A stretch of 64,000 bases of DNA from an uncultured Desulfobacteraceae bacterium. GTDB taxonomy: Bacteria; Desulfobacterota; DSM-4660; Desulfatiglandales; HGW-15. The stretch covers positions 825 through 64,824 of the forward strand of contig CAZOLJ010000006.1 in the NCBI GenBank assembly GCA_964580575.1, given 5' to 3'. Position numbers and translations under genes: made by a program. This document shows positions 9,732 through 61,529 of the stretch, piece after piece. The first letter of the stretch is position 1; every line of letters begins with the position of its first letter. The notes below the pieces were generated by a model. That model did not search any database. It was not told the DNA's origin and worked only from the letters and a program-made list of their open reading frames with translations.

Positions 9732-9803
9732 CCAGTGTCTCTTTCATTTCCTTTATCCCCATTCGTTGTTTGGGAGCGGCCATAGGCTTGCATTTGGATC
9801 GAT

Positions 9804-12851: not shown

Positions 12852-13291
12852 AATCCTTTGAACCCGTTATCGTGGCGTTCTGCTGCCATTACTGTGCCTA
12901 CACGGCGGCGGACATGGCAGGGAGTATGAGACGCTGCTATCCTCCTAACGTGCATATCCTCCGGGTCCCTTGCTCAGGGAAGGTGGACGCGATTCATATC
13001 ATGAAGGCTTTTCAAAAAGGCGCCGACGGCGTCTATGTGGCCGGTTGCCTGGAAGGGGACTGTCACTTCAAGGACGGGAACCTCAAGGCGGCCCGTCGGG
13101 TGGCCTATGTGAAGAAGCTCCTCGATGAGATCGGCGTGGGCGGGGAGCGACTTGAAATGATGACCCTGTCTGCGGGCATGGGCGAGCGTTTTGCGGTCAC
13201 GGCCTCCGAATTCACCGAGAAAATTCGGAGCCTGGGACCCAACCCGGTGAAAGGGGCGGCACAAGCCGGGCAAACGGCTGCGGCCGGTTGA
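12848..13291 (+). CDS. mvhD: MvhD-like protein (methyl-viologen-reducing hydrogenase delta subunit family), Cys form
   Basis: 'FCCHYCAY..AD.AG', 'RVPCSGKV' and 'GADGVYVAGCLEGDCHF'. GTG start overlaps the hdrA stop. Confidence 0.85.
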   Translation: MKSFEPVIVAFCCHYCAYTAADMAGSMRRCYPPNVHILRVPCSGKVDAIHIMKAFQKGADGVYVAGCLEGDCHFKDGNLKAARRVAYVKKLLDEIGVGGERLEMMTLSAGMGERFAVTASEFTEKIRSLGPNPVKGAAQAGQTAAAG

Positions 13292-13319
13292 TCGATGAGG
13301 TGAAGGAGAAGAGGAAACA

Positions 13320-13988
13320 ATGATCACTGCAGAGCGAAAACCGATTGAAGAAATCATGGAATTGATCCGGCCTTTCAACCGGATTCTTCTGGTGGGCTGC
13401 AACGAGTGTGTAACGGTTTGCGCTGCCGGAGGCCGCAAGGAGGTGGGCCTTTTGTCCTCCGCCCTTCAGATGGCTTGCATGAAGGAAGGCAAAGTCCTGG
13501 ATGTGAAGGAAATGACCCTGGAGCGGCAGTGCGACCCGGAATACGTTGAAGAGCTCGTGAGCGCGATCAACCAAGCGGATGCCGTGCTCTCCATGGCCTG
13601 TGGGTGCGGCGTTCAGGAAGTGGCGAGGCGCTTCAAGGAAAAACCGGTCCTTCCGGCCGTGAACACGAAATTCATGGGGGCTTCGGAGCGTCAGGGCGTG
13701 TGGGCCGAGCGATGCCAGGGATGTGGGGACTGTGTGCTCGGGCTGACCGGCGGGATCTGCCCTATCGCCCGGTGCTCCAAAAGGCTTCTCAATGGTCCCT
13801 GCGGAGGTTCGACGCGCGGGAAATGCGAAATCAACGCCGAGGTGGACTGTGCGTGGCAGTTGATCTGGGACCGGCTGAAAGCCCTTGGACTGGAAAAACG
13901 TTATGAGGACATCATGCCGGCAAAAGACTGGCGCACCAGCCGGGACGGCGGTCCCAGGCGAATCATCAGAGAGGATCTCGCATCATGA
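13320..13988 (+). CDS. metV: MetV-like Cys-rich small subunit of methylene-THF reductase
   Basis: Cys-rich 222 aa ('GCNECV', 'CQGCGDCVL..GICP.ARC.K...NGPCGG'). It lies immediately upstream of metF and overlaps it. Confidence 0.75.
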   Translation: MITAERKPIEEIMELIRPFNRILLVGCNECVTVCAAGGRKEVGLLSSALQMACMKEGKVLDVKEMTLERQCDPEYVEELVSAINQADAVLSMACGCGVQEVARRFKEKPVLPAVNTKFMGASERQGVWAERCQGCGDCVLGLTGGICPIARCSKRLLNGPCGGSTRGKCEINAEVDCAWQLIWDRLKALGLEKRYEDIMPAKDWRTSRDGGPRRIIREDLAS

Positions 13989-14908
13989 AAACGGAAAGCG
14001 TACTGGAAAGAATTCTGGCCGCCGGGCATCTGGCGGTGACTTCCGAGTGCGGCCCCCCCCGGGGCGCGGTGCCTGAAAAAGTCAGGGAAAAGGCCGAAAA
14101 ACTCAGGAGCTATGTGGATGCCATCAACGTGACGGACAACCAGACGGCCATGGTCCGCATGTCCAGTTTTGCCGCCTGTCTCATCATTCGACAGATGGGC
14201 CTGCATCCCATTCTACAAATGGTGACCAGGGATCGGAATCGACTGGCCATGCAAAGCGATATTCTCGGCGCCTACTCGCACGGAATCAACACCATGCTCT
14301 GCCTTTCCGGGGATCATCCCTGCTTCGGAGACCACCCCATGGCGGCGAATGTGTATGACCTGGACTCAATCCAGTTTATCCAGATGGTGAAAAACATGCG
14401 GGACAACGGAAAGTTCCAGGGAGGCGATGAGATCCTCAACCCTCCCAAGATGTTCATCGGCGCAGCCGCCAACCCCTTTGCCGACCCCTTTGAACTGCGC
14501 GTAGCCCGTTTGGCCAAGAAAGTCAAGGCCGGCGCGGACTTCATCCAGACCCAATGCATCTACGATCTGCCAAGGTTCGAGAAATGGATGGAGGGGGTTC
14601 GGGATCGAGGCCTTCATGAAAAGGTCGCCATTCTCGCGGGAGTGACGCCTTTCAAGTCCGTGGGCATGGCCAAATACATGAAAAACAAGGTCCCTGGCAT
14701 GAGCGTCCCGGACGAGATGATCAAGCGCCTATCCGGAGTCCCAAAGGACAAACAGGCCGAAGAGGGTCTCAACATTTGCGTGGAGACCATGCAACGCCTC
14801 AAAGAGGTGAAAGGCGTAGCCGGTTTCCACATCATGGCGATCGAATGGGAAGAAAAAGTGCCGGAGATCGTGAAAAAGGCGGGACTTCATCCGCGGCCGG
14901 GGGTGTGA
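13985..14908 (+). CDS. metF: Methylenetetrahydrofolate reductase
   Basis: 307 aa MTHFR fold motifs ('INVTDN', 'RDRNR.A.QSD.LGA', 'GADFIQTQ'), translationally coupled to metV. Confidence 0.85.
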   Translation: MKTESVLERILAAGHLAVTSECGPPRGAVPEKVREKAEKLRSYVDAINVTDNQTAMVRMSSFAACLIIRQMGLHPILQMVTRDRNRLAMQSDILGAYSHGINTMLCLSGDHPCFGDHPMAANVYDLDSIQFIQMVKNMRDNGKFQGGDEILNPPKMFIGAAANPFADPFELRVARLAKKVKAGADFIQTQCIYDLPRFEKWMEGVRDRGLHEKVAILAGVTPFKSVGMAKYMKNKVPGMSVPDEMIKRLSGVPKDKQAEEGLNICVETMQRLKEVKGVAGFHIMAIEWEEKVPEIVKKAGLHPRPGV

Positions 14909-19505: not shown

Positions 19506-20282
19506 CTATTTCCCTTTCCACTGAGGCGCCCGTTTGTTCAGAAACGCGTCCACCCCCTCTTTCGCATCCTCCGTCATGCACAGAGCGGCAAAGACCTCAT
19601 TGGTGTAAGCGAGGGCTTTCCCAAATTCCAGGTCGGCCATGCCATAAAAAGCCTCTTTGCCCATTTGAAGGGCAAGAGGGCTCTTCTCCGCCAGCCTGTT
19701 CGCGAGCGCCATAGTCTCCTCTTCGAGTTTGTCCAGAGGGACCACCCTGTTCACCAGACCCCAACGCTCCGCCTCTCTCGCGTCGATCATTTCTCCGGTC
19801 ATCACCATCTCCAGGCATCGCTTCCTGCTTAGAGAGCGGGACATGGGAACGGCCGGACCCATACAGAAGAGCCCCACATTGACGGCGGTTGCCCCGAGCT
19901 TGGTCCCTTCTGCCACAATGGCGAGGTCGCAGGCTGCAATGAGCCCTACCCCGTTAGCCACCGCATAGCCGTGGGCCGAGGCGATCACCGGTTTTTTCAC
20001 GGAGGCGATGACGTGAAGGGCCTGCTCCATCCGGCTGATCCATTCGCGGTATCCCTGAAGGGTCTTCCCATGAAACTCAGAGATATCAATACCGGTGCAA
20101 AACGCTTTGCCTGCACCCCTGATGACGAAGACACGGACGGTCTTGTCCACCTCCAGTTCAATAAGGGCCTTGCAGAGTTCATCCGCAAGAGCGGTGTTGA
20201 AGGTGTTGAACTGATTCGGGCGATTGAGGGTGATCAGCCCTACATGATCTTTCCGTTCTACGATGATGCTCTCATACGGCAT
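19506..20282 (-). CDS. Enoyl-CoA hydratase/isomerase (crotonase) family protein
   Basis: 'ITLNRP...NT', 'GAGKAFCTGIDI' and 'A..HGYA.GG/NG' oxyanion-hole motifs. ATG at 20282 after RBS GGAGGAGG. Confidence 0.85.
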   Translation of the reverse strand: MPYESIIVERKDHVGLITLNRPNQFNTFNTALADELCKALIELEVDKTVRVFVIRGAGKAFCTGIDISEFHGKTLQGYREWISRMEQALHVIASVKKPVIASAHGYAVANGVGLIAACDLAIVAEGTKLGATAVNVGLFCMGPAVPMSRSLSRKRCLEMVMTGEMIDAREAERWGLVNRVVPLDKLEEETMALANRLAEKSPLALQMGKEAFYGMADLEFGKALAYTNEVFAALCMTEDAKEGVDAFLNKRAPQWKGK

Positions 20283-20330
20283 GGTGGACCTCCTCCAAAA
20301 TGGCATTAGGAATAAAAGGGATTCCCCGTG

Positions 20331-20726
20331 TCAACTTGCTGTGATGATGAATTCAGGCGGGTGGATAATGTGTTTCTTGACGCTGCAAAGGTCCATGACC
20401 CTCGTCACTGCCTTCTTGTACCGATCTGGAAAGTCGGCGGGCACCTTTAGATCGATGTGTAGTTTCTCTATCCTCTGTTTCTTCTCGTCCCAATCATAGC
20501 TCAGGGTCAGCCCCATGCCCTCGGAAGGGATCTCGCGCGCCTGGCAGAATTCCAGAGCATAAATCCCTGCACAGGTCGCGATCGATGCGAGAAAGATCTG
20601 AAAAGGCTCGGGAGCGGTCTCCCCTCCACCATTGACTAACGACTGATCCGTATGAACAACGAAATCTCCAACTTGGGCATCTATCTTTTTCCCGCCAGGG
20701 AAAGAAACTGTGATTTCCTTCAACAT
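20331..20726 (-). CDS. OsmC/Ohr-family protein
   Basis: About 130 aa with 'PEP.Q.FLAS.A.C' and a second conserved Cys near the C-terminus. ATG at 20726 after RBS AGGAGG. Confidence 0.8.
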   Translation of the reverse strand: MLKEITVSFPGGKKIDAQVGDFVVHTDQSLVNGGGETAPEPFQIFLASIATCAGIYALEFCQAREIPSEGMGLTLSYDWDEKKQRIEKLHIDLKVPADFPDRYKKAVTRVMDLCSVKKHIIHPPEFIITAS

Positions 20727-20989
20727 AGGCCTCCTTTGAGATCCTTTCTCAAGGGGCAACTCCGTCGGGCTAAAGCAAGGTCGGCCCCAAGAATTTCGTT
20801 TTCCTGAAAACTTATATGATGGGCCTTCCCATCTGTAAATAGGGAATCAATAGAGCGTTATCGTTTTGGCCCTGTGAGGCTCCTTTCCACATCTTGTCCT
20901 CAGGGCGCAGGAGCGTGGCCTATAGACGTTTTTCTCTTCCCCTGCTATAAAAGAAATGGTCCTTAGCGACCTCAACGGGGAGCGAAACC

Positions 20990-38290: not shown

Positions 38291-39604
38291 CTATTCTTCT
38301 TCCTCCTCTTCCCCCTCCTCGTCAAAAACGATCTCATCCCTTTCGTACTGGGCATCCCTCAGGGCATGAGCTTTTTCCACTTCCTCTTGGCTCCAGGGCT
38401 CCACGATGAGCGAGTCGGCCACGAGCTCCCACAGGTATTTGGTCTCGATGTCCAGGCCGAATTCCTTGGTTAGGCCTTTCATGATCTGGTCGCGACAGTT
38501 GTGGCAGGGCGCAATGACCAGTTTCGCTCCTGTGTCCTTGATCTGTTGGGCCTTAACCCTTCCGTAGTAAATCCTCTCGTCCGAATAGGGCATGGCCCAT
38601 GCTCCGCCGCCGGCTCCGCAGCAGTAGTTGTTCATCCGGTTGGGGTCCATGTCGACAAAACGCTCGCAGCACTGCTGGGTGATCCACCTCGGCTCTTCAA
38701 AGTAGCCGTGACCGAAAGCTTTCTGACTCTTCCTGCCATAGTTGCAGGGATCATGCACGGTCGCGAGTTCCTCATGGATCGTTTTATCCAATTTGATTCT
38801 TCCCGTCTCGATGTATTCTTTGAGAAGATCGTGAACGGAGACGACCTTGTATTTCTTGAAAACTTCGGGATACCAGTTTTGCAGACCAAGCCTGGTCGCA
38901 TAGTAGGCGTGCCCTCACTCCGGCAAAAGGAGCGTCTTGCACTCCAGCCTTTCCATGTGTTCGACGATGCGGCCCACGAGCGTCTTCATGGACTCGTCAT
39001 CGCCCGAGAAGAGGCCCCAGTTCACTCCCTCCCAGTTGTAGGAGGGCACGGTCCAGTCCTCCTTGGCCGCATAAAAAATGCGCCACCAGAATTTCATGTC
39101 ATCGGGCTCGCCGAAAGGCTCCTTGGAATTGACGGTGATCAGCACATTGGCACCCTTTTTGTCCACAGGCACATAGAACCCTGGGAAACCATCCGCTTCA
39201 AGCTCTTTGCCCAGGTCGGCGAGAAGAAAAAGGAAATCCGCCTTGGGAATCCCAAGGTTGTTCCCCCTGTTCAGATCCATGACCACGCCCTTGTGGATAG
39301 GGCCGGGGACCTTGTCTCTCGCGCGAAGGGTCCTGGCCCTTCGCATCATCTTGAGGATTTCCACGCCCTGGGGACAGGCGTATTCGCAACGGCCGCACAG
39401 GGTGCAGATCCAGGGGAACCTCGAATCAATGAGCTCCTGGTCCAATCCCAGGGCAGCCATACGCACGGCCTTACGCGGGTCCATGTTGTCGACGCCGGTA
39501 ACCGGGCAACCGCTGGCGCAGGTGCCGCAGGTGAAACAGACATCCGCCCACTCGGGAGACACTCTCAGTTTGCTTTCTTTACGGTTAATCACAACGGGTT
39601 CCAT
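38291..39604 (-). CDS. HdrD/DsrK/GlpC-like Fe-S (CCG-domain) oxidoreductase with selenocysteine (UGA at 38915-38917 recoded)
   Basis: Track ORFs 38915-39604 and 38291-38791 are in one frame. Translating through gives '...KTLLLPE-U-GHAYYATRLGLQNWYPEVF...'. The N-terminus has 2x[4Fe-4S] (CxxCxxCxxxCP); the C-terminus has 'NYCCGAGGG' and 'PCHNC' (CCG domain). Hairpin GACCA-GGCU-UGGUC lies 17 nt after the UGA (plus coordinates 38884-38897). Acidic poly-E tail. Confidence 0.8.
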
Positions 39605-40130: not shown

Positions 40131-40982
40131 CTAGTATTCGGAGGGCATTTGTTTGAGCTGCGCCAGAGAAAAGACCGGTCCGTCCTTGCACACGTACTGG
40201 TCTCCAATGTTGCAGCGACCGCAAATGCCGACGCCGCATTTCATGCGCATTTCCAGAGAGAGAATAATCCGCTCCGGGGGAAACCCCAGTTTCTCCAACA
40301 CGGGTTGAGTGAACTTGATCATGACCGGCGGTCCGCACACAATGGCAATGGCGTTTTCCGCGTTCTTAATTTTTCGCTCCGTAATGGTGGGCACAAATCC
40401 CACGTTGTATTTCCAATTCGGATCATTCGTGCTGTCCACGGTGATGTGCATGTGAATGTCGTCCCTCTGCTCCCAGACAGCGAGTTCCTCCTTGTAAAGG
40501 AGCATTCCCGGGCTTCGGGCTCCGTACACCACCATGATGTCCTTGAATCGCGACCGGTTGTCCGGATGAAGCATGTAGACAATGCTGGAGCGAAGGGTGG
40601 TGAAAGCGAAACCGCCGCCCACGATGACCACATTCCTTCCCTCCATCTCCTCCCAGGGGTACCAGTTTCCCAGAGGGCCACGGATCCCCATCACTTCGCC
40701 CTCTTTCATGTTGTGAAGGTAGGTGGTCACCTGGCCGACCTTGTTCACGGTAAAGGCGACAAATCCCTTTTCCGTCGGGGAGGAGGCGATGCCGATCGGG
40801 ATCTCCCCTTTCCCTGCGATGGAGAGCTCTGCAAACTGACCCGGAGTATAGGCGAACTTCCTTTCGTCCTCAGGATCAAGGAAAACGAACCTGAAAGTCT
40901 TCAGGTTCTTGTCTTCGGTCTCCGTGACGATCTTGTCGATTCGGACCGGGTAAGGAAGATAGGGATTTTGCATCAGACTCAT
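40131..40982 (-). CDS. FAD/NAD(P)-binding oxidoreductase with C-terminal 2Fe-2S (PyrK/AsrB/FlxA-like)
   Basis: Ferredoxin-reductase fold ('PGQF..L', 'GPLG', 'V.GGGFA') and C-terminal 'MKCGVGICGRCN'. The start may be the internal Met at 40973. Confidence 0.8.
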   Translation of the reverse strand: MSLMQNPYLPYPVRIDKIVTETEDKNLKTFRFVFLDPEDERKFAYTPGQFAELSIAGKGEIPIGIASSPTEKGFVAFTVNKVGQVTTYLHNMKEGEVMGIRGPLGNWYPWEEMEGRNVVIVGGGFAFTTLRSSIVYMLHPDNRSRFKDIMVVYGARSPGMLLYKEELAVWEQRDDIHMHITVDSTNDPNWKYNVGFVPTITERKIKNAENAIAIVCGPPVMIKFTQPVLEKLGFPPERIILSLEMRMKCGVGICGRCNIGDQYVCKDGPVFSLAQLKQMPSEY

Positions 40983-40996
40983 ACTCCTTCTTCAAT

Positions 40997-41100
40997 CTGG
41001 AGTGATGGAGTGATGGAGTAGTGGAGTGTTGGGTTGAACAATTCAAGAAACCATCGATGACCTTCCATCACTCCAGTGCTCCAATACTCCAGTGCTCCAT
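40997..41100. repeat. Intercistronic hairpin element A built from degenerate 8-nt tandem repeats (TGGAGYRN)
   Basis: Left arm 40997-41033 is CTGGAGTGATGGAGTGATGGAGTAGTGGAGTGTTGGG. Right arm 41065-41100 is CCATCACTCCAGTGCTCCAATACTCCAGTGCTCCAT (inverted copies). 31-nt spacer. Confidence 0.6.
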
Positions 41101-41102
41101 TC

Positions 41103-42140
41103 TTAGTATCCATTCATCAATTCAAACACTTTTCGAATATCGATGTTGACAGGACAAAACTGAACACATCGCCCGCACCCGACGCATGCCGGCCCGTTCC
41201 TATACTTGTCTGCGTAATACTTCAGCTTGTGCATAAACCGCTGCCGGACCCGTTGGAGCTTTTTGTCCCGGGGATTGTGGCCGGACCCGTGCAGGGTGAA
41301 GAGCGGAAACATGCAGGCGTCCCAATTCCGGATCCTGTCCCCTTCTTTTCGGTAGACTTCGTCCTGGATGTCAAAGCACCAGCAGGTGGGACAAAGAAAC
41401 GTGCAGGTTCCGCAGTTGATGCACGCAAAAGAGACCCTCTCCCAGAAAGGGGCATTGAAAAGCTCATTGACCACTTTTCCCCGAAGCTGCTCCGTGGGCA
41501 CCTTGGAGGAGATTTTTTTCTCCGCCGCTCGGGGAAGGCTTAACGCCTTCTTGAGGAGAGCATCGTCGGCCTCTGTTCCGAAATCGACCTTTTCCAGGAA
41601 AGCCTCGCCCTTGGGCGTGAGGCTTCTCACCAGGTAACGGTCGCCCAGGTCGACCATGAGCGCATCCAGGCCTTTCTCGCTGAAGGGGCCGTTTCCCACA
41701 GAGGTGCAAAAGCAGGAGGCACAGGGGTCGTTGCAGCTGAAGCCGACAAGGGTGGTGGACTCCATGCGGCGGACCCACCACGGGTCTTGGAACTGAGGAT
41801 TGTCGAAATTGATCCTCACCAATTCAAAAGCAAAAGCGTCACAAGGCCTTATTCCCACGATCACCTGGGGAGAGAAGTCCTTCGCCGCTTCCTTGACGAC
41901 GTGCGCGTCCTCTTTGCTCTCGTCCAGAGTGTACTCGAACATCCGCTCTGACTGCGGAAGGATAACCGACTTCGGGGAAAGCCTGGTGTTCTGGAACTCA
42001 AAATTGGGCTTTCGACCGTTTTCCAGAAGCCTGAAGTTGTGGAAGTCCCCTTCCTTCACGGGGACAAACACCTTGTAAGCGCTTTGCAACCCTCTCAGTG
42101 CCTCAGTCCACTTTTCCTTGCTAAATGACTTTTTAAGCAT
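41103..42140 (-). CDS. 4Fe-4S dicluster protein (AsrA/FlxB-like)
   Basis: 'CINCGTCTFLCPTCWC' and 'CVGCGRCVQFCPVNI'. ATG at 42140; the track ORF start at 42254 reads through repeat element B. Confidence 0.7.
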   Translation of the reverse strand: MLKKSFSKEKWTEALRGLQSAYKVFVPVKEGDFHNFRLLENGRKPNFEFQNTRLSPKSVILPQSERMFEYTLDESKEDAHVVKEAAKDFSPQVIVGIRPCDAFAFELVRINFDNPQFQDPWWVRRMESTTLVGFSCNDPCASCFCTSVGNGPFSEKGLDALMVDLGDRYLVRSLTPKGEAFLEKVDFGTEADDALLKKALSLPRAAEKKISSKVPTEQLRGKVVNELFNAPFWERVSFACINCGTCTFLCPTCWCFDIQDEVYRKEGDRIRNWDACMFPLFTLHGSGHNPRDKKLQRVRQRFMHKLKYYADKYRNGPACVGCGRCVQFCPVNIDIRKVFELMNGY

Positions 42141-42152
42141 AACGCGAATCCT

Positions 42153-42254
42153 TAGGAGTATTGAATGCTGGAGTATTGGAGTCCTGGAGTGCTGGAGTAG
42201 TGGTGGAATAAAGAAAAAGAGAATATCCAGTACTCCAAGACTCCAGCAATCCAA
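42153..42254. repeat. Intercistronic hairpin element B (TGGAGYRN tandem repeats plus inverted copies)
   Basis: Left 42153-42206: TAGGAGTATTGAATGCTGGAGTATTGGAGTCCTGGAGTGCTGGAGTAGTGGTGG. Right 42227-42257: CCAGTACTCCAAGACTCCAGCAATCCAATCA. Confidence 0.6.
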
Positions 42255-43205
42255 TCATTTGACAAAGTCGTTATAGTCGTCCACTCGGTAAACATCCAGA
42301 GGCGGCCGCTGATCCATGCGGGTTCCGGCCTCCCAGCCGAAGAGCTCAAAAGCATCCTTGTTCAGCTTTTTGGTGAACGGCCTCATGGAGATCCCCACGG
42401 GGCAAACCCGTTCGCAAGCCCCGCAGTCCGTGCACCTTCCGGCACAATGGTAGGCTCGCAAAAAATGAAAGGTCATGGTGTCTACAGGGTCCGTGCTCTT
42501 CCCCACCCACTGGGGCCGCGACTCATCAACAAAGCAGGTCGGACAGTAGCAGAGAGGGCAGGCGTTCCGGCACGCGTAGCATCTGAGGCAGGATGAAATG
42601 AGCTGAGTGAAAAACTTCCGTTTTTCCTCGGGGCTCTTTCTCTCCAACACGTCAACGTCTTTGAAGGCGTTGACGCCCTCTTGTTCCGGCACCGGGTCGG
42701 CGACCATCTCGTCGTATTCCACAGGGTTCCGATGAAGGCAAGTGGAGCAATTGGTCCTCAAGAAATCTTTTTTCTTGAAGGTCTCCTGAAAACCGTTTCC
42801 GCTCACCGTGAAGGAGTCCTTGCTTTCAGTGACCTCCAAAATTTCTTTATTCCCCATCGTCCTCTTCACGGCTCGGTGGTCGATCATGCCGGTGCAGGGA
42901 ACGCCCACGATGTAAAGCTGTTCCCGCTTAATCTGGTTTTCGATGATGTGGGTCACGATGCTTCTGGAATTGCATCCATTGGCCACAATTCCGACGCGGT
43001 CGGTGCGCTTAGTCAGATAATTGCAGAGGTTCAGACCACAGTGGCTGTCCCAGTGAAGCAGGTCCACCTCCGCAGGATGCTTGATCAGCACCGGTTCATT
43101 CATCATGGGCACTGAGCCCTTCTGGTAGCCGATGAAAACGTCGACGGTTCCCTTCTCCAGGAGCTTTCGAGCGATGTCTCTGATTTTCTGAGTATACTCA
43201 AGCAT
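42255..43205 (-). CDS. FrhB/FdhB-N-terminal-like Fe-S protein (FlxC-like)
   Basis: 'CLRCYACRNACPLCYCPTCF' and 'CTDCGACERVCPVGI' with an N-terminal FrhB-like region. ATG overlaps the mvhD stop (TGATG). Confidence 0.7.
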   Translation of the reverse strand: MLEYTQKIRDIARKLLEKGTVDVFIGYQKGSVPMMNEPVLIKHPAEVDLLHWDSHCGLNLCNYLTKRTDRVGIVANGCNSRSIVTHIIENQIKREQLYIVGVPCTGMIDHRAVKRTMGNKEILEVTESKDSFTVSGNGFQETFKKKDFLRTNCSTCLHRNPVEYDEMVADPVPEQEGVNAFKDVDVLERKSPEEKRKFFTQLISSCLRCYACRNACPLCYCPTCFVDESRPQWVGKSTDPVDTMTFHFLRAYHCAGRCTDCGACERVCPVGISMRPFTKKLNKDAFELFGWEAGTRMDQRPPLDVYRVDDYNDFVK

Positions 43206-43636
43206 CAAACCACCTCAGCTCTTTTCTTAACAAGATAAGTTGCCTGACCGGTCTCCTTAACCGCCTTGATGACTTCGGTGGCAACCTCCACGAACTTCGT
43301 TGCTTCGGCAGAGGAAATCCACGAAAAGTGCAGCCTTCCCGGTTCCATCCCCACATGCTCGATCAGATTCTTGAACAGAGCGAACTTGCGTCTTGCGAAG
43401 TAATTACCTTCCAGGTAATGGCAGTCGCCCGGGTGTCACCCGGAAACCCAGACGCCGTCGGCGCCGTGCCGGAAGGCGGCGAGGATGAATTTGGGGCTCA
43501 CCCGGGCAGAGCAGGGCACCCGAATGACCCGGATATTGGATGGGTACTGGAAGCGGCTGACCCCTGCCAGGTCTGCCGCGCCATAGCTGCACCAGTTGCA
43601 CAAGAATGCAGTTATCTTAGGTTGCCAATCGTTCAT
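43205..43636 (-). CDS. mvhD: MvhD/FlxD-like protein with selenocysteine (UGA at 43436-43438 recoded)
   Basis: The track ORF ends at '...[10 protein letters not shown]'. Read-through gives '[23 protein letters not shown]...' to TGA at 43205. The Cys paralogue at 12848 has 'GVYVAGCLEGDCHF'. Hairpin AUUACCU-GGA-AGGUAAU lies 16 nt after the UGA (plus 43403-43419). Confidence 0.8.
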
Positions 43637-43654
43637 AGATAGCTCCTCAGCTCA

Positions 43655-43749
43655 AGAGTGACAAGTGACGAGTGACAAGTGACAAGTGACAAGCAACGAA
43701 GGCCAAAATCAAGATCCACAGACTCTCGTGACTTGTGACTTGTCACTCT
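43655..43749. repeat. Intercistronic hairpin element C built from 7-nt tandem repeats (GTGACRA)
   Basis: Left 43655-43694: AGAGTGACAAGTGACGAGTGACAAGTGACAAGTGACAAGC. Right 43725-43749: CTCGTGACTTGTGACTTGTCACTCT. The outer 12 bp (43655-43666 with 43738-43749) are perfectly complementary. Confidence 0.6.
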
Positions 43750-43753
43750 CTTC

Positions 43754-46700
43754 TCACATTTCATTGATCATGGCCATGATCTGCCCTTCCTCAAATCCCT
43801 TGAGGTTGAGCGCTCCCGAGCGGCAGGACGCCACGCACAGCCCACAGCCCTTGCAGAGCACCGGATTGACCTCCGCCTTTCCCGTGAAAGGGCCCTTCTG
43901 GATAAAGGAGGTCGCCGAATAAGGGCAGATCTCCACACAGACCCCGCAGCTGCTGCAGACGACAGGGGTCGCATAGGCGACCATACCGCTCACCGCGATG
44001 GTCTTTCTGGCCAGCAGGGTGACCGCTCTGGAGGCGGCCGCCTGGGCCTGGGCCACCGACTCATCAATGGGCTTCGGATAGTGGGCCATACCGCAAAGGA
44101 AGACGCCGTCCGTGGCAAACTGGGACGGACCGAGCTTGGCATGAGCCTCCACAAAAAAGCCGTCCTCGCTCAAAGGAACCTTGAAAAACTGGGCAAGCTT
44201 TTCGTCCTTGTAGGGAACAATGGCAGAGGCCAGGGCAAGCAAATCCGCCTTGATCAGGATGGGCCGTTGGAGGACGTGATCCATCACCTCGATCTCAAGG
44301 CCCTCTTTGCCGGCAGAGACTTTCGGTTTCTGTGAAATGGAGAACCGAATGAAGAGGATCCCCGCTTCTCGCGCCTCCCTGTAAAGGAGTTCCCGCTCCC
44401 CGTAGGTTCGGATATCCCGGTTGAGAATGTAAACATCCATGGCTGGGTTCAGTTCTTTGAGGTGGAGGGCGCTCTCGATGGAGTGGGTGCAGCAGACCCT
44501 CGAACAATAAGGCCTTTGGGGTTCGCGCGAACCCACGCATTGGATGAACACGGCTGTTTGAATCTTCTTGATCGACGGATCGCGATCGATGAACCTGCGG
44601 TCGAGCTCCTGGTGAGTCACCACGAGGGGGTGCTTCCCGTAAAGGTATTCCTCGGGCTTGTATTCATAGCATCCCGTGGCGAGCACGGCGATTCCATGTT
44701 CAAGGGTCCCCTGGAGGGTGCTGGACTGAAACGTGGTCTTGAAGCTTCCCACAAAACCTTCGACCTGGGTCAACTCGGCTCCGAGGTGGACCCGGATGTT
44801 TTTATCCCCTTGGACCGATTGCACAAGGCCCCCAAGATTTTTCTGGATATCTTCCCCCTGCCATGTCCTGTAAAGGTTCAGAGCCTGACCGCCCAGTACG
44901 GGAGCTTTCTCGACGATGTCCACCTCATAGCCCTGGTCGCTTAGGGTTTTTGCCGCCACCATACCGGAGATGCCGCCGCCGATCACGAGGGCCCGCTGGT
45001 TGATATCCAGCACGGCCTCTGGGAGGGATTCCATAAGAGCGACCTTGGCCACGGCCATGCGCACGAGGTCCTTGGCTTTGTCCGTCGCCTCCTGAGGATT
45101 GTCTTTGTGAACCCAGGAGTCCTGGTTGCGGATGTTGGTCATCTCGAAGAGATATTTGTTGAGGCCTGCGGTGACCAACGTCTCCTGGAACAGGGCTTCG
45201 TGGGTCTTGGGCGTGCATGCGGCCACCACGATCCGGTTGAGGGTGTTCGCCTTGATCACCTGGGCCATGGTGTCCTGAGTGTCCTGCGAGCAGGAGTAGA
45301 GGTTATCCGCCACGTACTCAACGTAGGGGAGGGTCTTCGCGTAGTCACGCACCGCCGGGACATTCACCACGCTGCCGATGTTGATGCCGCAATTGCAGAC
45401 AAACACTCCGATGCGAGGCCGCTCCCCCCGAATGTCCTTCTGCTCGGGCACTTCTTTCGCCTTGGTCAAGGTATTGCGAGCGCCGCTCAAAAGGGCTCCT
45501 GCCCGGGCAGCGGCCGAACTCGCTTCGATTACGGACTGGGGGATGTCCTTGGGCCCCTGGAAAGCGCCGCACACATAGATGCCTTCCCTGGATGTGGCCA
45601 CCGGAGCGAAGGAACTTGTCCTGCAGAACTGCGACCCTGTGAGGTCGATGCCGAGCTTGTCGGCCAATTCCATGACCTGCGGGGAGGTCTCGAGCCCCAC
45701 GGAGAGGACGACCATGTCAAAAGCCTCCTGGCGAAATTCACCGTCTTCAGTGGCATACTTGACACTGAGATCCTCGGTCAGCGGCATGGCCTCAACGGAG
45801 TGAACGCGGGACCGGATGAACCGAACCCCGTGTTTTTCCCGAGCGGCGTCGTAGTACCTTTCGAACTCCTTCCCGTGGGTCCGCATGTCCATATAGAAGA
45901 TGGCGCAATCGAGATTAGATCCTGAATGCTCCTTGGCGATCACCGCCTCTTTGATGGCATACATGCAGCAGACAGAGGAGCAGTAGGGATGGTCGCATTG
46001 GTGCATGTCCCTGGACCCGACGCACTGGAGCCAAGCGATCTTCTTGGGTTCCTTGTGATCGGACATGCGGGCGAGATGCCCCAGGGTAGGACCGGACGCT
46101 GAAAGGATCCTCTCGAACTCCATGGAAGTGACCACGTTCGGGAGCTTGGCGTAGCTGTAAGTATCGTACTTGGAGGGGTCAAAGGGTTGAAAACCTGGTG
46201 CAAGGATGATCGCTCCCACATCCAGTTCAATGATTTCATCCTTTTGAGAATGATCGATCGCCCCGACACCGCAAAATTCCGCACAGATCTTGCAGCCGCC
46301 GGTCTTGAAATGGATGCACATGCTCCTGTCTATGGCCGGCGTGTTGGGAATAGCCTGAGCGTAGGGAACGTAGATAGGCTTCCGGCCCTTGAGGCCCATA
46401 TCGTATTCGGAAGGAATGGGCTTCACCGAATGTTTGGTGATGTCTTCCAGTCTGATGTGCCCGGTCGGACAGACCGATGCACAGGCCCCGCACCCCATGC
46501 AGAATTCGGTCTGGATGTGAAACGGCGTATCGACCTTCATCTCGGTGCCGCGACCGGTCAGGCTGATGGCGGCATTTCCCATCCTCTCGCAGATCCTGGT
46601 GCAAAGTCCGCAAAGGATACAATCATCGTTCTCTTTCTTGAATCGGGGTTCTTCAAGGTCGTATTTTTTTGCCAGTTCCCTTAGAACGGGGACCTCCGGG

Positions 46701-46987
46701 CAACGGGCCAGAAGCAGCTCCACGAGCAACTTTCGACCCTTGTGAACGGCCTCCGTGTCCGTCTTGACCTCCATGCCTTCCCATATGGGGTAATTGCAGG
46801 ACGTGACAAAACGGGTCCGCCGTCCGTCGAAGACCTCCACAGTGCATAACCGGCACATTCCTGCAGGCTCCAGGGCCTTGTGGTGGCACAAAGTCGGGAT
46901 CTCGATCCCATATTTTTGTGCAATCTGGAGGATGTATTGTCCCTCTTCTCCTTGGACCGTTTTTCCGTTCATCTTGAAAGTAATCAT
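43754..46987 (-). CDS. Fusion protein: NuoG-N-terminal-like (2Fe-2S plus Fe-S) and HdrA-like flavoprotein lacking the first HdrA N-terminal module
   Basis: N-terminal 'MITFKMNGK......CHH....P.G.CR.C.VEV' (Fer2_4/NuoG type). Then HdrA body 'FERILSASGPTLGH...WLQCVGSRD...YCSSVCCMYAIKEA', a second Rossmann 'VIGGGISGM' and C-terminal 2x[4Fe-4S]. Confidence 0.85.
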   Translation of the reverse strand: MITFKMNGKTVQGEEGQYILQIAQKYGIEIPTLCHHKALEPAGMCRLCTVEVFDGRRTRFVTSCNYPIWEGMEVKTDTEAVHKGRKLLVELLLARCPEVPVLRELAKKYDLEEPRFKKENDDCILCGLCTRICERMGNAAISLTGRGTEMKVDTPFHIQTEFCMGCGACASVCPTGHIRLEDITKHSVKPIPSEYDMGLKGRKPIYVPYAQAIPNTPAIDRSMCIHFKTGGCKICAEFCGVGAIDHSQKDEIIELDVGAIILAPGFQPFDPSKYDTYSYAKLPNVVTSMEFERILSASGPTLGHLARMSDHKEPKKIAWLQCVGSRDMHQCDHPYCSSVCCMYAIKEAVIAKEHSGSNLDCAIFYMDMRTHGKEFERYYDAAREKHGVRFIRSRVHSVEAMPLTEDLSVKYATEDGEFRQEAFDMVVLSVGLETSPQVMELADKLGIDLTGSQFCRTSSFAPVATSREGIYVCGAFQGPKDIPQSVIEASSAAARAGALLSGARNTLTKAKEVPEQKDIRGERPRIGVFVCNCGINIGSVVNVPAVRDYAKTLPYVEYVADNLYSCSQDTQDTMAQVIKANTLNRIVVAACTPKTHEALFQETLVTAGLNKYLFEMTNIRNQDSWVHKDNPQEATDKAKDLVRMAVAKVALMESLPEAVLDINQRALVIGGGISGMVAAKTLSDQGYEVDIVEKAPVLGGQALNLYRTWQGEDIQKNLGGLVQSVQGDKNIRVHLGAELTQVEGFVGSFKTTFQSSTLQGTLEHGIAVLATGCYEYKPEEYLYGKHPLVVTHQELDRRFIDRDPSIKKIQTAVFIQCVGSREPQRPYCSRVCCTHSIESALHLKELNPAMDVYILNRDIRTYGERELLYREAREAGILFIRFSISQKPKVSAGKEGLEIEVMDHVLQRPILIKADLLALASAIVPYKDEKLAQFFKVPLSEDGFFVEAHAKLGPSQFATDGVFLCGMAHYPKPIDESVAQAQAAASRAVTLLARKTIAVSGMVAYATPVVCSSCGVCVEICPYSATSFIQKGPFTGKAEVNPVLCKGCGLCVASCRSGALNLKGFEEGQIMAMINEM

Positions 46988-47009: not shown

Positions 47010-48911
47010 CTATCCCACGACAATGGCATCGAACTTACAGGCGTCGTAGCAGATCCCGCACTTGACGCACTTTCCTTGGTCCAGTTGATGAACCTTTTTC
47101 TTGTCCCCCGCGATGGCTTCCTGGGGACACTTGAGAGCACACACGTGACACCCTGTGCAGGCCTGCTCGTCCACCTCATAGTGAAAGAGGGGTTTGCAGA
47201 CCCCAGCAAAGCATTTTTTGTCCTTAATGTGGGCCTCGTACTCATCACGAAAGTAGAGAATGGTGGTGAGAACCGGATTGGGAGCCGAGGTGCCCAGCCC
47301 GCAGAGGGAAAACTTCTGGATCATGCTCCCCAACTCTTCGAGCAGCTCGATGTCGCCTTCTTTACCCCTGCCCTCACAGATGCCCGTGAGCACATCGAGC
47401 ATTTGCTTGATTCCCTCCCGACAAGGGGTGCACTGGCCGCAGGATTCGCCGTTGAGAAAGTCAAGAAAGTAACGGGCCAGATCCACCATGCAAGTGTCCT
47501 GATCCATGACGATCATGCCGCCGGAGCCCATCATGGAACCTACCTTGGTCAGTTCATCAAAATCGACTTGAAGATCCAGGAACGCCTCCGGGATACAGCC
47601 CCCAGAAGGCCCTCCGGTCTGAACAGCCTTGAATTTTCGCTTTTTGGGAATCCCCCCTCCCATGTCGAAAATGATCTCCCGCAGAGGAGTGCCCATCGGC
47701 ACTTCAACCAGGCCGGTATTCTTCACTTTTCCAACGAGGCTGAACACCTTGGTGCCTTTGCTGTATTTCGTTCCCATGCCGGCGTACCATTCGGCCCCTT
47801 TGAGCATGATGACGGGAACGTTTGCGTAGGTTTCGACGTTGTTGAGATTGGAGGGACCGTCCCTGAATCCCTTTTCCACCGTGTGAACATACTTGGCCCT
47901 CGGTCTCCCAACCTTCCCCTGCAGCGAGGCCATGAGGGCTGTGGATTCTCCGCAAACGAATGCGCCAGCCCCGGTGGAGATCTTGATGCTGAAGCTGAAC
48001 CCGGAACCTGCGATGTTGTCCCCGAGCAACCCGAGATCCTCCGCTTGCCGGATGGCGTTGACGAGACGCTTCACCGCCAGTGGATACTCATTGCGCACAT
48101 AGATGTAGCCCTGAGCCGATCCAATGGCGTAGGCCGCTATCAGCATTCCTTCCAGGACGCTGTGGGGATCTCCCTCCAGCACACTCCTGTCCATATAAGC
48201 CCCTGGGTCGCCCTCATCGGCATTACAGATGACATACCGCTCTCCGCGGTGTTTGCGACAGCTCTCCCATTTTATTCCCGTAGGAAATCCGCCGCCGCCC
48301 CGACCCCTCAGACCGGACTTCTTGATGCTTGTGATGATATCCTCAGGTTTCATTTCAGCGAGGACACGGGTGAAAGCGAAATAGCCTCCTCTCCCAATAT
48401 ATTCCTGGACGCTCTGAGGATCGATGTAGCCGCAATTGCGCAAGGCGACCTTGACTTGCCGAGAATAAAACGGGATTTCTTCCAAGAAGGGGATCGCTTT
48501 GAGGGGTTTCACCTTTTCGAGGGGGTTCCGGATGTCTTCCTCAAGGACGGATCGGGGGTCTCGCATCTGGCCAAGGATCAACTTCTTGCTGAACTTCTCT
48601 TCCGTGTAGTCTTGAACAACATCCAAGACCCTATCCTCGGTCACCCGTTTGTACACGACCCTCGGTCGCCCCTTTGCCACTATCTCCACCAGAGGCTCTT
48701 CTTCGCAAAAGCCGAGACAACCGGTTTGCCGAACTTGAAAAGAGTGAGCTTCAGGATACTCTTTCAGCGCTTTTTCGAAGGTCGCTTTGGCTCCGGCAGC
48801 GATCCCGCAGGACGCCATTCCCACATTGAGCATCATGGTCTCTGGGTAGTAGAGTTTCTGACTATACTCTGAAGTGATCTTTTCCAGATCTTTCACCGAG
48901 TGGATTTTCAT
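47010..48911 (-). CDS. NuoF/HydB-like NADH-binding FMN Fe-S flavoprotein
   Basis: 'GRGGGGFPTG.KW' (FMN), 'CNADEGDPGA', 'ESCGQCTPCREG' and C-terminal 2x[4Fe-4S] ferredoxin motifs; 633 aa. Confidence 0.9.
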   Translation of the reverse strand: MKIHSVKDLEKITSEYSQKLYYPETMMLNVGMASCGIAAGAKATFEKALKEYPEAHSFQVRQTGCLGFCEEEPLVEIVAKGRPRVVYKRVTEDRVLDVVQDYTEEKFSKKLILGQMRDPRSVLEEDIRNPLEKVKPLKAIPFLEEIPFYSRQVKVALRNCGYIDPQSVQEYIGRGGYFAFTRVLAEMKPEDIITSIKKSGLRGRGGGGFPTGIKWESCRKHRGERYVICNADEGDPGAYMDRSVLEGDPHSVLEGMLIAAYAIGSAQGYIYVRNEYPLAVKRLVNAIRQAEDLGLLGDNIAGSGFSFSIKISTGAGAFVCGESTALMASLQGKVGRPRAKYVHTVEKGFRDGPSNLNNVETYANVPVIMLKGAEWYAGMGTKYSKGTKVFSLVGKVKNTGLVEVPMGTPLREIIFDMGGGIPKKRKFKAVQTGGPSGGCIPEAFLDLQVDFDELTKVGSMMGSGGMIVMDQDTCMVDLARYFLDFLNGESCGQCTPCREGIKQMLDVLTGICEGRGKEGDIELLEELGSMIQKFSLCGLGTSAPNPVLTTILYFRDEYEAHIKDKKCFAGVCKPLFHYEVDEQACTGCHVCALKCPQEAIAGDKKKVHQLDQGKCVKCGICYDACKFDAIVVG

Positions 48912-48932: not shown

Positions 48933-49430
48933 CTATTCGTATCCGCCCAGGATTTTCGTGGCTTCATCAGGGGACAGCCGGGCGTGAACAGCCTCATTAA
49001 TTTTGACTACAGGTCCGAGACTGCAGCAGCCGATGCAGCGCACGGATTCAAGGGTGAAGCGTCCGTCTCCCGTGGTCTGCCCATCATGGATATGCAACTG
49101 TTCTTGTATCTGCTCATGAACCCGCTTGGCCCCTCTGACATGGCACGCTGTCCCCAGGCAAACCGTAATCAGATTGCGTCCGCGCGGCTCCAGGCTGAAG
49201 GTAGCGTAGAACGTCGCAATTCCATAGATCTGACTCAGGGGAACACCGACTTTTTCCGCAAGATAGGTGAGGCTTGGTCTAGGGAGGTAATTGTAGCGCC
49301 TCTGTATGGCCTGAAGCATCATGATCAGATTTTCTTTGTCATTGCCAAATTGGGATTCGATCAAATTGTCCAGTTCAAAGTAATCCAATTCATCGGCAGA
49401 AGCAGTCTGCACCGGACGCACCTCATTCAT
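48933..49430 (-). CDS. NuoE/HoxE-like 2Fe-2S thioredoxin-fold subunit
   Basis: 'VCLGTACHVRGA' and 'CIGCCSLGPV'; 165 aa. Confidence 0.9.
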   Translation of the reverse strand: MNEVRPVQTASADELDYFELDNLIESQFGNDKENLIMMLQAIQRRYNYLPRPSLTYLAEKVGVPLSQIYGIATFYATFSLEPRGRNLITVCLGTACHVRGAKRVHEQIQEQLHIHDGQTTGDGRFTLESVRCIGCCSLGPVVKINEAVHARLSPDEATKILGGYE

Positions 49431-49454: not shown

Positions 49455-49868
49455 CTACGCCCTGGTTGTCTGATCCGTACGGGGAACACCAACCGCTTGA
49501 TTGACGACAGGGCAGTTTTCAACGCACACGCCGCAGCCTGTGCACAGATCCATGTTGATGCTCCGGGCCCGTTTTCTTATTTTCACTTTGAAATCTCCAG
49601 GGCTTCCTTCTACGGACTCAAGATCAGAGTAAGTGATGAGCTCGATATTAAGATGCCGGCCGACCTCGACCAGTTTGGGGGAGATGATTCACATGGCGCA
49701 GTCGTTGGTGGGAAAGGTCTTGTCCAATTGAGCCATGGCCCCGCCGATGGCAGGGGATTTCTCAAGAAGGTAGACATAATACCCGGAATCCGCCAAATCA
49801 AGGGCGGACTGCATCCCTGCGATACCCCCGCCCACAACCAGAACCGATCCTTTCACGCTGCTGGACAT
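49455..49868 (-). CDS. Stand-alone HdrA N-terminal module with selenocysteine (UGA at 49689-49691 recoded)
   Basis: '[47 protein letters not shown]...' continues to '[12 protein letters not shown]' and TAG at 49455. It aligns to residues ~10-120 of the HdrA at 9804 ('FPTNNCDLCTLSP'). Hairpin CUGGUCG-AGGU-CGGCCGG lies 15 nt after the UGA (plus 49656-49673). Confidence 0.75.
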
Positions 49869-60245: not shown

Positions 60246-61529
60246 CTACTCCTCCTCTTCTTCCTCCTTGGGAATCATGTGTTCCGGGATCTCCATGTGC
60301 TCGGCGATCACTTCCTTGAAGTGGACGGCCTTGATGTCGAGCTTGTGCTCCTTGGCCAGGTCCCGGATCTGGTCGATGCAGTTGTGGCAGGGCACCAGAA
60401 CGATCTTGGCGCCTGTTTCGCGGATCTGCTCGGCCTTGATCTTTCCCGAAGCCAGGCGGTACTTTTTCATTTCACCGCCCATGGGCATGGCCCCGCCGCC
60501 GCCCCCGCAACAGTAGTTGTAGTTGCCCTGGTACTTCATGGGGCGGAAATCCTCCGACACCATTTCAGCCAGATGCCGGTTTTTCTCTGCGAGTCCTCCG
60601 CTCCGGATGACATTGCAGGGGTCCTGGACCGTGGTGGGCACTTTGATCTTCTCTTTGAGCTTGATCCGGCCGTCCCTGAGGTAATCGTGGAAGAGTTCCA
60701 CCGAGTGAATCACTTCCTGCTTTGGCTCGTATCCCAACCAGGTGGGCGCTTCGTACCGAAGCGCACGATACGCGTGTCCTCACTCGGTTATGGCGACTTG
60801 TTTCACCTCCAGTTCCTCGGCGCGCTTGAAGGTGTTTTCAACGATCATGCGAGCGGTAGGCGCATCATTGATGAACATGGCCAGGTTCGTACCGTCCCAT
60901 CCTTTCTCGCTCGGGACAGTCCAGTCCTCCCCGGCGACCGTAAAGATTTTGGCCACCTCCATGATGTCCTGAGGGTAGAACTTGGGCTCCCTGGCATTCA
61001 CCGTGTACATGATTTTGGCGCCCTTCTTGTCGATGGGGATCTTGACGCCCACGACTTCCGCCGCGGCCTCCTCCTCGCACCACTGGATGGTCTCGACCCA
61101 GTCTTCCTTGGACACGGCCATCTGATTGCCGGTGAGCTTGTAGTTTTCGACGGCTTTCTTGAGACCTTCAGGCGCGATTCCCAAGGAGGTCAGCAGGCCC
61201 CGGAGGGTGGAGATGAGAAAGCCGATGTCAATGCCGAAGGGACAGTAGAGGGTGCAGCGCCTGCACATGTTGCACTCATAGTAAATGGTTTTGTAGATCT
61301 CCTGGAGGTACTCCTTGTCCACCCGGCCTTTTTTCTTGAGCAGGTCTCTCAAGAATCTCACTTTGTAGGCGGGGATCATTTTGGGATCTTTCCCGCTCGC
61401 CAGATAGAAGTGGCAGGTGTCGGCGCACATGCTGCAGTGGGTGCAGGTTTCAATCCACGTCTTCAAACGGGCACCCAATCGGGGTTTGAGGAAATCCATG
61501 ATCGCTTTCGGGTTCACGTCTTCAGTCAT
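60246..61529 (-). CDS. DsrK/HdrD-like Fe-S (CCG-domain) protein with selenocysteine (UGA at 60780-60782 recoded)
   Basis: Track ORFs 60780-61529 and 60246-60737 are in frame. Read-through gives '...KQVAITE-U-GHAYRALRYEAPTWLGYEPK...'. 'CTHCSMCADTC' and 'CNMCRRCTLYCP' are N-terminal; 'NYCCGGGGG' and 'PCHNC' are C-terminal. Perfect 8-bp hairpin GCGCUUCG-GUA-CGAAGCGC lies 15 nt after the UGA (plus 60746-60764). Poly-E tail, as in 38291-39604. Confidence 0.8.

Follow-up and report, generated by a model that had tools for sequence, protein, structure and literature searches.

Known Sec-containing proteins of the MvhD family

FrhD, MvhD and VhuD have been catalogued as a selenoprotein family since 1997-2007, and a selenocysteine (Sec) form of MvhD is therefore not a new finding. 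Zhang and Gladyshev (2006) recorded 19 bacterial FrhD selenoproteins, eight of them in Syntrophobacter fumaroxidans, and conversions from Sec to Cys as well as from Cys to Sec were reported for bacterial FrhD (PMC1794560). Archaeal forms have two Sec residues, and a bacterial homologue has just one of these two (Zhang and Gladyshev 2007, PMC1976440). The two Sec residues of archaeal VhuD are described as "50 codons apart" (PMC4989117). Desulfobacterium autotrophicum HRM2 has four Sec-containing mvhD genes (mvhD1, mvhD2, mvhD3 and mvhD5) beside hdrA/hdrL (PMC2702500). In a 2026 review, the family appears with the motif CxxU and two Sec residues (PMC13188914).

We analyzed a 64,000-nucleotide stretch of DNA from an uncultured Desulfobacteraceae bacterium (the window), which holds a gene of this family interrupted by an in-frame UGA. 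The features of the gene are as follows.

43205-43636, minus strand: mvhD/flxD coding sequence of 143 codons, closed by a TGA stop and starting with the ATG at 43636-43634 (from translation and PF02662)
43436-43438, minus strand: in-frame UGA at codon 67, predicted Sec in place of the invariant Cys67 (from translation and alignments)
43643-43646, minus strand: Shine-Dalgarno sequence GGAG, 6 nt before the mvhD ATG (read from the sequence)
43203-43207, minus strand: TGATG, overlap of the true mvhD TGA stop with the ATG of the next gene

VhuD of Methanococcales and Methanopyrus resembles the window MvhD in its family, in its gene order after hdrA and in the position of a Sec at alignment column 67. 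In contrast, archaeal VhuD has both Sec residues and a SECIS element in the 3'-UTR, whereas the window gene encodes Cys at column 16, a single predicted Sec and a bacterial SECIS-like element within the coding region. A hydrogenase (MvhA/G) is absent beside the window gene. The Sec-containing MvhD/FrhD proteins of Deltaproteobacteria (S. fumaroxidans, D. autotrophicum HRM2 and Olavius symbionts) are encoded directly after hdrA/hdrL, and the window gene is of the same kind.

A further relative is BamF, which belongs to the class II benzoyl-CoA reductase of Geobacter metallireducens. Like the window protein, BamF is a [2Fe-2S] adaptor of the MvhD type with a single Sec. BamF joins the NuoE/F/G-like BamGHI to an HdrA-like flavoprotein; the neighbors of the window mvhD encode NuoE, NuoF and a NuoG-HdrA fusion. 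This NuoEF-HdrA coupling resembles the BamGHI-BamE-BamF arrangement, in which the MvhD homologue connects an NADH/ferredoxin module with the bifurcating flavoprotein. The Sec of BamF (Sec19) is the non-ligand residue at column 16, in the CxxU motif, whereas the Sec of the window protein falls at column 67. BamF is also more than 100 residues longer than the window product, and no tungsten BamB/AOR gene was seen beside the window operon, unlike in the Bam system.

The MvhD proteins of Methanothermococcus thermolithotrophicus (5ODC) and Methanothermobacter marburgensis (9SW2, whose chain 9SW2_D we take to be the M. marburgensis MvhD) are about 50-55% identical to the window protein over 127 residues, with the same spacing of five cysteines, His68 and Asp71. 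Unlike the window protein, they are all-Cys proteins and belong to a [NiFe]-hydrogenase. FlxD of the Desulfovibrio vulgaris FlxABCD-HdrABC system is presumably MvhD-like as well and encoded beside Hdr genes and Flx genes that resemble sulfhydrogenase beta and gamma subunits. The D. vulgaris FlxD is presumably a Cys protein. Compared with that system, the window shows the opposite gene order and has an additional NuoEF/HdrL module.

Gene, reading frame and protein family

The plus-strand frame of 43205-43636 is meaningless, and the coding strand is the minus strand. Read from 43636 to 43205, the translation starts with MNDWQPK, ends with AEVV and contains a single internal stop over 143 residues. 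This stop is the TGA at 43436-43438, which appears as "tca" on the plus strand. With Cys substituted at codon 67, the protein matches the Pfam family PF02662 (FlpD, the delta subunit of methyl-viologen-reducing hydrogenase) over all 123 profile positions (1-123; protein residues 8-130; E 7.6e-53). It also matches the NCBIfam VhuD model NF045873 (E 1.9e-36). The true stop is the TGA at 43205-43207, and its overlap with the next ATG indicates that TGA acts as an ordinary stop here, where no SECIS element follows.

Searching the Protein Data Bank by sequence gave six MvhD-type chains. The best match was M. thermolithotrophicus MvhD (5ODC_D; E 1.4e-44, about 55% identity), and the other top matches were Methanospirillum hungatei 7BKB_F and 9SW2_D. 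The sixth-ranked chain, 9SFI_K, is presumably M. maripaludis VhuD. When five solved MvhD sequences were aligned with the window protein, the UGA was placed on Cys67 of the motif G-C67-H68-x-G-D71-C72-H, and the Protein Data Bank chains are gapless through this region. The first-pass annotation had left room for a UGA outside the conserved Cys column; since it falls on the invariant Cys67, that objection fails.

Sec and Cys forms among relatives

When GTDB was scanned with each species represented by one genome, 80 close relatives emerged that are 69-98% identical to the window protein. The motif-matching loci among them, together with six metagenome places that hold the exact N-terminal fragment, make up a set of 81 loci. 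Codon 67 is TGA in 61 of the 81 and TGC or TGT in the other 20. The TGA form is present in the cultured Desulfosarcina alkanivorans and D. widdelii, and the Cys form in the cultured Desulfatibacillum alkenivorans and Desulfacinum hydrothermale. On a neighbor-joining tree of 73 orthologues, Fitch parsimony requires at least five switches between Sec and Cys. The survey of Sec and Cys forms that had been suggested at the outset thus reveals an alternation across the lineage. With the full-length PF02662 match and the same TGA in these 61 loci, the initial assignment of an MvhD/FlxD-like subunit with a UGA at 43436-43438 stands, and the observation goes far beyond chance.

One base separates TGA from a Cys codon, and an error of sequencing or assembly in place of TGC or TGT could in principle produce such an interruption. 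This reading is refuted by the recurrence of the TGA across assemblies: it is found in 61 independent loci, and the exact 66-residue N-terminal fragment occurs in 102 blocks of public assemblies produced by several pipelines. We regard the chance of an error as negligible.

The reading frame beyond the UGA is also conserved. Among 54 Sec-form orthologues, residues 68-129 have a mean identity of 76% to the window protein and contain no further stop. This conservation bears on whether the TGA is a genuine stop that leaves a pseudogene or only a 66-residue fragment. Gene callers and GenBank do report the 66-residue product (MBW1723157.1 and others), and no other stop codon is used more often in the window than TGA. 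However, the frame remains open over the 76 codons beyond the TGA, with 76% conservation among the 54 genomes, sister lineages have Cys codons in place of the TGA, and the stop that truly ends mvhD shares bases with the ATG that follows. A fragment of 66 residues would furthermore lack C67 and C72, two of the four putative cluster cysteines, and the synonymous constraint on the hairpin described below is specific to Sec forms. A genuine stop is therefore very unlikely.

The family holds two Sec columns. A metagenome scan for CNW followed by UGA returned many forms with Sec at column 16. One locus (L117) has UGA at both columns 16 and 67, with CNW-U separated from G-U-H by exactly 50 codons, and its second UGA is followed by a hairpin identical to that of the window gene, AUUACCU-GGA-AGGUAAU. 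Of the five Cys columns of the family, 16 and 67 alone fit a spacing of 50 codons. The published archaeal spacing (PMC4989117) and this two-UGA locus together place the two archaeal Sec residues at columns 16 and 67. Given this spacing, the two-UGA locus and the catalogued family, Sec at column 67 is already established for the family, to which the window gene adds a further member. With M. thermolithotrophicus MvhD as the query, a protein search gave all-Cys archaeal forms and no archaeal Sec forms. Among the archaeal homologues from this search that matched the search motif, 106 of 109 have Cys at all five columns.

The Cys paralogue in the window

The first-pass annotation regarded a Cys-containing MvhD at 12848-13291 as a direct internal control for the Sec form. 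The paralogue does have Cys, reading GADGVYVAGCLEGDCHFKDGN, and matches PF02662 over its full length (E 9.2e-51). It is, however, only 40% identical to the protein of 43205-43636 and belongs to a separate operon, MetF-HdrA-MvhD-MetV-MetF. Because of this identity and the different operon, it is a distant paralogue and not an isofunctional Cys twin, which makes it a weak control. Nor does it represent a selenium-free backup for the mvhD at 43205-43636. The real controls are the Cys orthologues in other genomes.

A SECIS-like hairpin in the coding region

A bacterial SECIS directs Sec insertion at a UGA from within the coding region, and a candidate element follows the mvhD UGA.

43395-43428, minus strand: bacterial SECIS-like stem-loop (from folding and synonymous-site conservation)
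43419-43403, minus strand: core 7-bp hairpin AUUACCU GGA AGGUAAU, with the loop at 43412-43410 and a lower stem GCGA/UCGC

The hairpin had been noticed early as a 7-bp stem 16 nt downstream of the UGA, and both the pairing and the spacing are exact: it starts 16 nt past the UGA, and its loop starts 23 nt past it. The fold energy is -9.1 kcal/mol for the 34-nt element and -15.1 kcal/mol for the 63 nt after the UGA. The published bSECIS model has a loop of 3-9 nt, an upper stem of 4-16 bp, a G in the first two loop positions, a distance of 16-37 nt from UGA to loop and a minimum free energy of -7.5 kcal/mol or below (PMC13188914). The mvhD element, with its GGA loop, G at loop positions 1 and 2, 7 bp, distance of 23 nt and -9.1 kcal/mol, lies within these limits of loop, stem, spacing and energy. 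Taken by itself, the 17-nt hairpin folds weakly (-4.5 kcal/mol), and the -7.5 threshold is passed only with the lower stem.

Comparison of Sec and Cys forms provides the main evidence for its function. Each of the 59 distinct Sec forms keeps all seven pairs, as against 2 of the 19 Cys forms. Codons +6 to +11 of the 59 Sec forms are always CAT TAC CTG GAA/GAG GGT AAT, so that the third-position entropy is 0 at five hairpin codons and 0.29 bits at codon +9; in the 19 Cys forms it is 0.95-1.8 bits over the same codons. The flanking codons (-20 to +5, and +12 onward) vary equally in the two groups. Leu75 (CUG) is fixed in the Sec forms, and most Cys forms have Ile there. Both hairpin-bearing Cys forms (L039 and L028) lie in or next to Sec clades, a placement that fits recent conversion from Sec to Cys with a fossil SECIS. 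As it does not vary among Sec forms and is degenerate among Cys forms, the hairpin behaves as a SECIS would. Its invariance also means that the support takes the form of synonymous-site constraint and not of compensatory covariation. Rfam gave nothing at the gathering threshold over the whole window and nothing at E <= 10 over 43150-43700; this null result is uninformative on SECIS status, because none of the Rfam families matched the element.

Other UGA-interrupted genes and the decoding of UGA

The window contains three further UGA-interrupted genes of Hdr type, with the UGA at known Sec positions and each followed by a hairpin. Two of them are in the same cluster as mvhD.

49455-49868, minus strand: HdrA N-terminal fragment with its own in-frame UGA at 49689-49691, motif FPTNDCAM-U (from translation and the HdrA2 model)
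38291-39604, minus strand: HdrD/GlpC/HmcF-like CCG-domain protein with UGA at 38915-38917, motif LLLPE-U-GHAYY (from profile matches and hairpin folding)

The HdrA fragment matches positions 137-257 of the NCBIfam HdrA2 model, with the hairpin downstream of its UGA. The third gene is a second HdrD/GlpC-like gene with UGA at 60780-60782, and the pair shares the motif PE/TE-U-GHAY. The FPTNDCAM-U motif was found upstream of mvhD in 11 related loci. Nine of these have Sec in both MvhD and HdrA, and two combine Cys-MvhD with Sec-HdrA; these loci are too few to establish a coupling, and the coupling is not strict.

An alternative genetic code in which TGA encodes Trp or Gly was considered and excluded, because TGA is the commonest ordinary stop in the window, where it ends 19 of the 35 long ORFs, mvhD included. 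A same-frame ORF pair at 19506-20759, also considered as a UGA read-through, is really two genes, OsmC-like and enoyl-CoA hydratase-like. The window contains no tRNA gene and thus no tRNA-Sec, and selA, selB and selD are not among its annotated ORFs. The source organism evidently uses Sec. The sequence evidence argues strongly that codon 67 of mvhD would be decoded as Sec, and the analysis confirms that 43205-43636 encodes an MvhD/FlxD protein with a UGA, predicted to be recoded as Sec, at one putative cluster-binding Cys position.

Position 67 and the [2Fe-2S] cluster

The role of residue 67 can be approached from an alignment of 14 sequences that covers the two paralogues of the window, the proteins of four solved structures, homologues from bacteria and archaea, and one two-UGA form. 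Its only invariant cysteines are C13, C16, C42, C67 and C72. All five columns are present in the window protein, with the UGA at column 67. A recent structural paper names Cys16 of MvhD as an additional, non-ligand cysteine (PMC13580544), and the corresponding non-ligand residue is Sec19 in BamF of the Geobacter benzoyl-CoA reductase, according to a 2026 preprint (bioRxiv 10.64898/2026.04.10.717634). With Cys16 reported as the one non-ligand Cys, the four cluster ligands would be C13, C42, C67 and C72. Residue 67 is thus a probable [2Fe-2S] ligand by elimination among the five invariant cysteines, which is consistent with the early proposal that this Cys belongs to the cluster-ligating motif.

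Sec67 stands directly beside His68 and near Asp71. According to PMC13580544, these two residues lie at or close to an unidentified ligand that is bound by the HdrA Cys202/Cys205 pair. Structural papers from 2025-2026 call the electron step from the MvhD cluster to FAD unresolved, and the passages searched in recent structural papers contain no discussion of a Sec at column 67.

Two other roles for the residue were weighed. Sec67 could be inserted and yet remain a free, redox-active selenol that forms a selenenylsulfide with a partner Cys, with the [2Fe-2S] cluster held by other residues. Sec is usual at redox-active rather than structural sites, and the other Sec column of the family (column 16; Sec19 in BamF) is a non-ligand Cys position to which the BamF preprint ascribes probable thiol or selenol chemistry (bioRxiv 10.64898/2026.04.10.717634). 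His68 and Asp71, which adjoin residue 67, also touch the ligand on the HdrA Cys pair, as reported in PMC13580544. Against this, there are only five invariant cysteines, a [2Fe-2S] cluster needs four, and Cys16 is explicitly the extra one in that paper; if residue 67 were free as well, only three ligands would be left for the cluster. We therefore consider a free selenol at position 67 unlikely.

A more speculative role, to which we assign a decidedly low probability, is that of a hemilabile selenolate ligand. Sec67 of a docked MvhD, by His68 and Asp71, would face the Cys-x-x-Sec pair of the HdrA fragment encoded in the same operon. On leaving the iron, Sec67 would form an Se-S or Se-Se bridge with this pair and reduce the bifurcating FAD, so that two one-electron steps would be turned into a two-electron reduction of FAD.

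Operon context and proposed function

The minus-strand cluster begins with the Sec-containing HdrA N-terminal fragment and continues with NuoE-like, NuoF-like, HdrL-type and Sec-containing MvhD genes. These are followed by genes for a 4Fe-4S protein, a sulfhydrogenase-beta/AsrA-like protein, a gamma/AsrB-like protein, a response regulator and the Sec-containing HdrD. The genes around mvhD, assigned with Pfam and NCBIfam, are as follows.

48933-49430, minus strand: NuoE-like gene of an NADH module
47010-48911, minus strand: NuoF-like gene of an NADH module
43754-46987, minus strand: HdrL-type protein of 1077 residues, with a NuoG-like 2Fe-2S N-terminus, ferredoxin domains and an HdrA flavoprotein core
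42255-43205, minus strand: 4Fe-4S protein, downstream of mvhD
41103-42254, minus strand: sulfhydrogenase-beta/AsrA-like protein
40131-40982, minus strand: gamma/AsrB-like FAD/NAD protein

The HdrL-type protein matches the NCBIfam HdrA2 model (E 8.8e-232) in addition to its NuoG/HoxU N-terminus, and its gene ends 117 nt upstream of mvhD. The three genes downstream of mvhD (40131-43205) presumably form an FlxCBA-like set, named after the Desulfovibrio FlxABCD. The cluster contains no hydrogenase catalytic subunit. Its architecture is that of an Flx-like module together with a NuoEF-HdrA coupling.

From homology and gene order, MvhD is most likely an adaptor, as BamF is, that takes single electrons at its [2Fe-2S] cluster and passes them toward the FAD of an HdrA-type protein. 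In the proposed mechanism, the stem-loop in the coding region would serve as a bacterial SECIS and recruit SelB with Sec-tRNA(Sec), and the ribosome would insert Sec at codon 67 and then read 76 more codons to the TGA stop. Sec67 would replace one of the four putative [2Fe-2S] ligands (C13, C42, U67 and C72). MvhD would dock on the HdrA-type electron-bifurcating flavoprotein and pass single electrons toward FAD, in a complex with the HdrA N-terminal fragment, the NuoE/NuoF-like module, HdrL, the FlxCBA-like proteins and HdrD. We hold this explanation as a whole, a Sec-containing MvhD/FlxD with SECIS-driven decoding, Sec67 at a putative ligand position and a complex encoded by the operon, to be highly probable. 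The family assignment, the Cys/Sec column, the alternation of Sec and Cys across the lineage and the constraint on the SECIS are its observed parts; Sec insertion itself, ligation of iron by selenium and the electron path are the predicted parts of it.

Consequences for annotation

The window gene adds one more natural Sec at a putative Fe-S ligand position. Selenium at such a position, next to residues that face the HdrA Cys/Sec pair, poses a real question, and this question of the role of selenium predates the window gene and was not opened by it. The chief practical value of the analysis lies in annotation: public MAG annotation fails on this gene, which, like several hundred of its close relatives, has been deposited as a fragment of 66 residues. 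Gene callers based on stop codons would likewise split or truncate at least three neighboring UGA-containing Hdr genes. As a result of such truncated calls, Hdr/Flx bifurcation complexes would be under-called in metabolic reconstructions of sulfate-reducing or syntrophic Desulfobacterota. The exact fragment is deposited as "hydrogenase iron-sulfur subunit" under MBW1723157.1, MBW2130098.1 and NTV56902.1. It belongs to a cluster of 500 members, and 14 of the 15 members listed are 66 residues long.

UGA Codons in Other Heterodisulfide Reductase-Like Genes

In-frame UGA codons occur in further genes of the window, and two of these genes encode HdrD/GlpC-like proteins.

38291-39604, minus strand: HdrD/GlpC/HmcF-like gene with a CCG domain, TGA at 38915-38917
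60246-61529, minus strand: second HdrD/GlpC-like paralogue, TGA at 60780-60782

The first consists of two same-frame ORFs of 229 and 166 residues that together make up a single HdrD/GlpC/HmcF-like CCG-domain protein. The ORFs are linked through the in-frame UGA within the motif LLLPE-U-GHAYYATRLG, which is followed by a hairpin. This protein is probably a further selenoprotein, of a family that is already known. The same motif surrounds the UGA of the second gene (AITE-U-GHAYRALR), which ordinary ORF calling breaks into ORFs of 249 and 163 residues.

The other gene encodes only the FAD-binding N-terminal portion of HdrA.

49455-49868, minus strand: HdrA N-terminal fragment gene, in-frame TGA at 49689-49691

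Its UGA belongs to the CxxC/U pair of HdrA, within the sequence [14 protein letters not shown], and a hairpin is found about 15 nt 3' of the codon. NuoE- and NuoF-like genes intervene between this fragment gene and the remainder of HdrA, which is encoded by the 1077-residue gene. In solved complexes, the CxxC/U pair faces MvhD (PMC13580544).

Sec and Cys Forms of MvhD

Public annotation has ended mvhD at the UGA, as in the 66-residue GenBank entries MBW1723157.1, MBW2130098.1 and NTV56902.1. Among the members listed of a 500-member cluster at 90% identity, most are 66-residue MvhD fragments of this kind. The Cys paralogue is housed in a separate gene set.

8859-14908, plus strand: cluster of MetF-like, HdrA (1015 residues), MvhD, MetV and MetF genes

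We take its gene content to be that of an HdrA-coupled methylene-tetrahydrofolate reductase, an enzyme known from acetogens. Two Cys-form orthologues (loci L039 and L028; TGT/TGC) retain a complete 7-pair hairpin and are placed within or beside Sec clades. Their hairpins look like fossil SECIS elements left after a recent Sec-to-Cys conversion. Another homologue, L117, carries two in-frame UGAs.

Metagenome contig Ga0194113_10090625: L117 MvhD homologue, TGA at 2162 and 2315

These UGAs occupy columns 16 and 67, with 50 codons between them. The second is followed by a hairpin identical to that of mvhD in the window, and the first has its own predicted stem-loop 3' of the codon.

Repeats in the hdrL-mvhD Spacer

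The spacer between mvhD and the upstream HdrL/HdrA-type gene is repetitive.

43640-43750: hdrL-mvhD spacer, 117 nt, with the heptamer GTGACAA five times in tandem, plus copies in inverted orientation

A 12-mer is present here in 5 copies (0.27 expected) and nowhere else in the window. The heptamers and their inverted copies could form a long hairpin of -43.9 kcal/mol, with a z-score of only -1.9.
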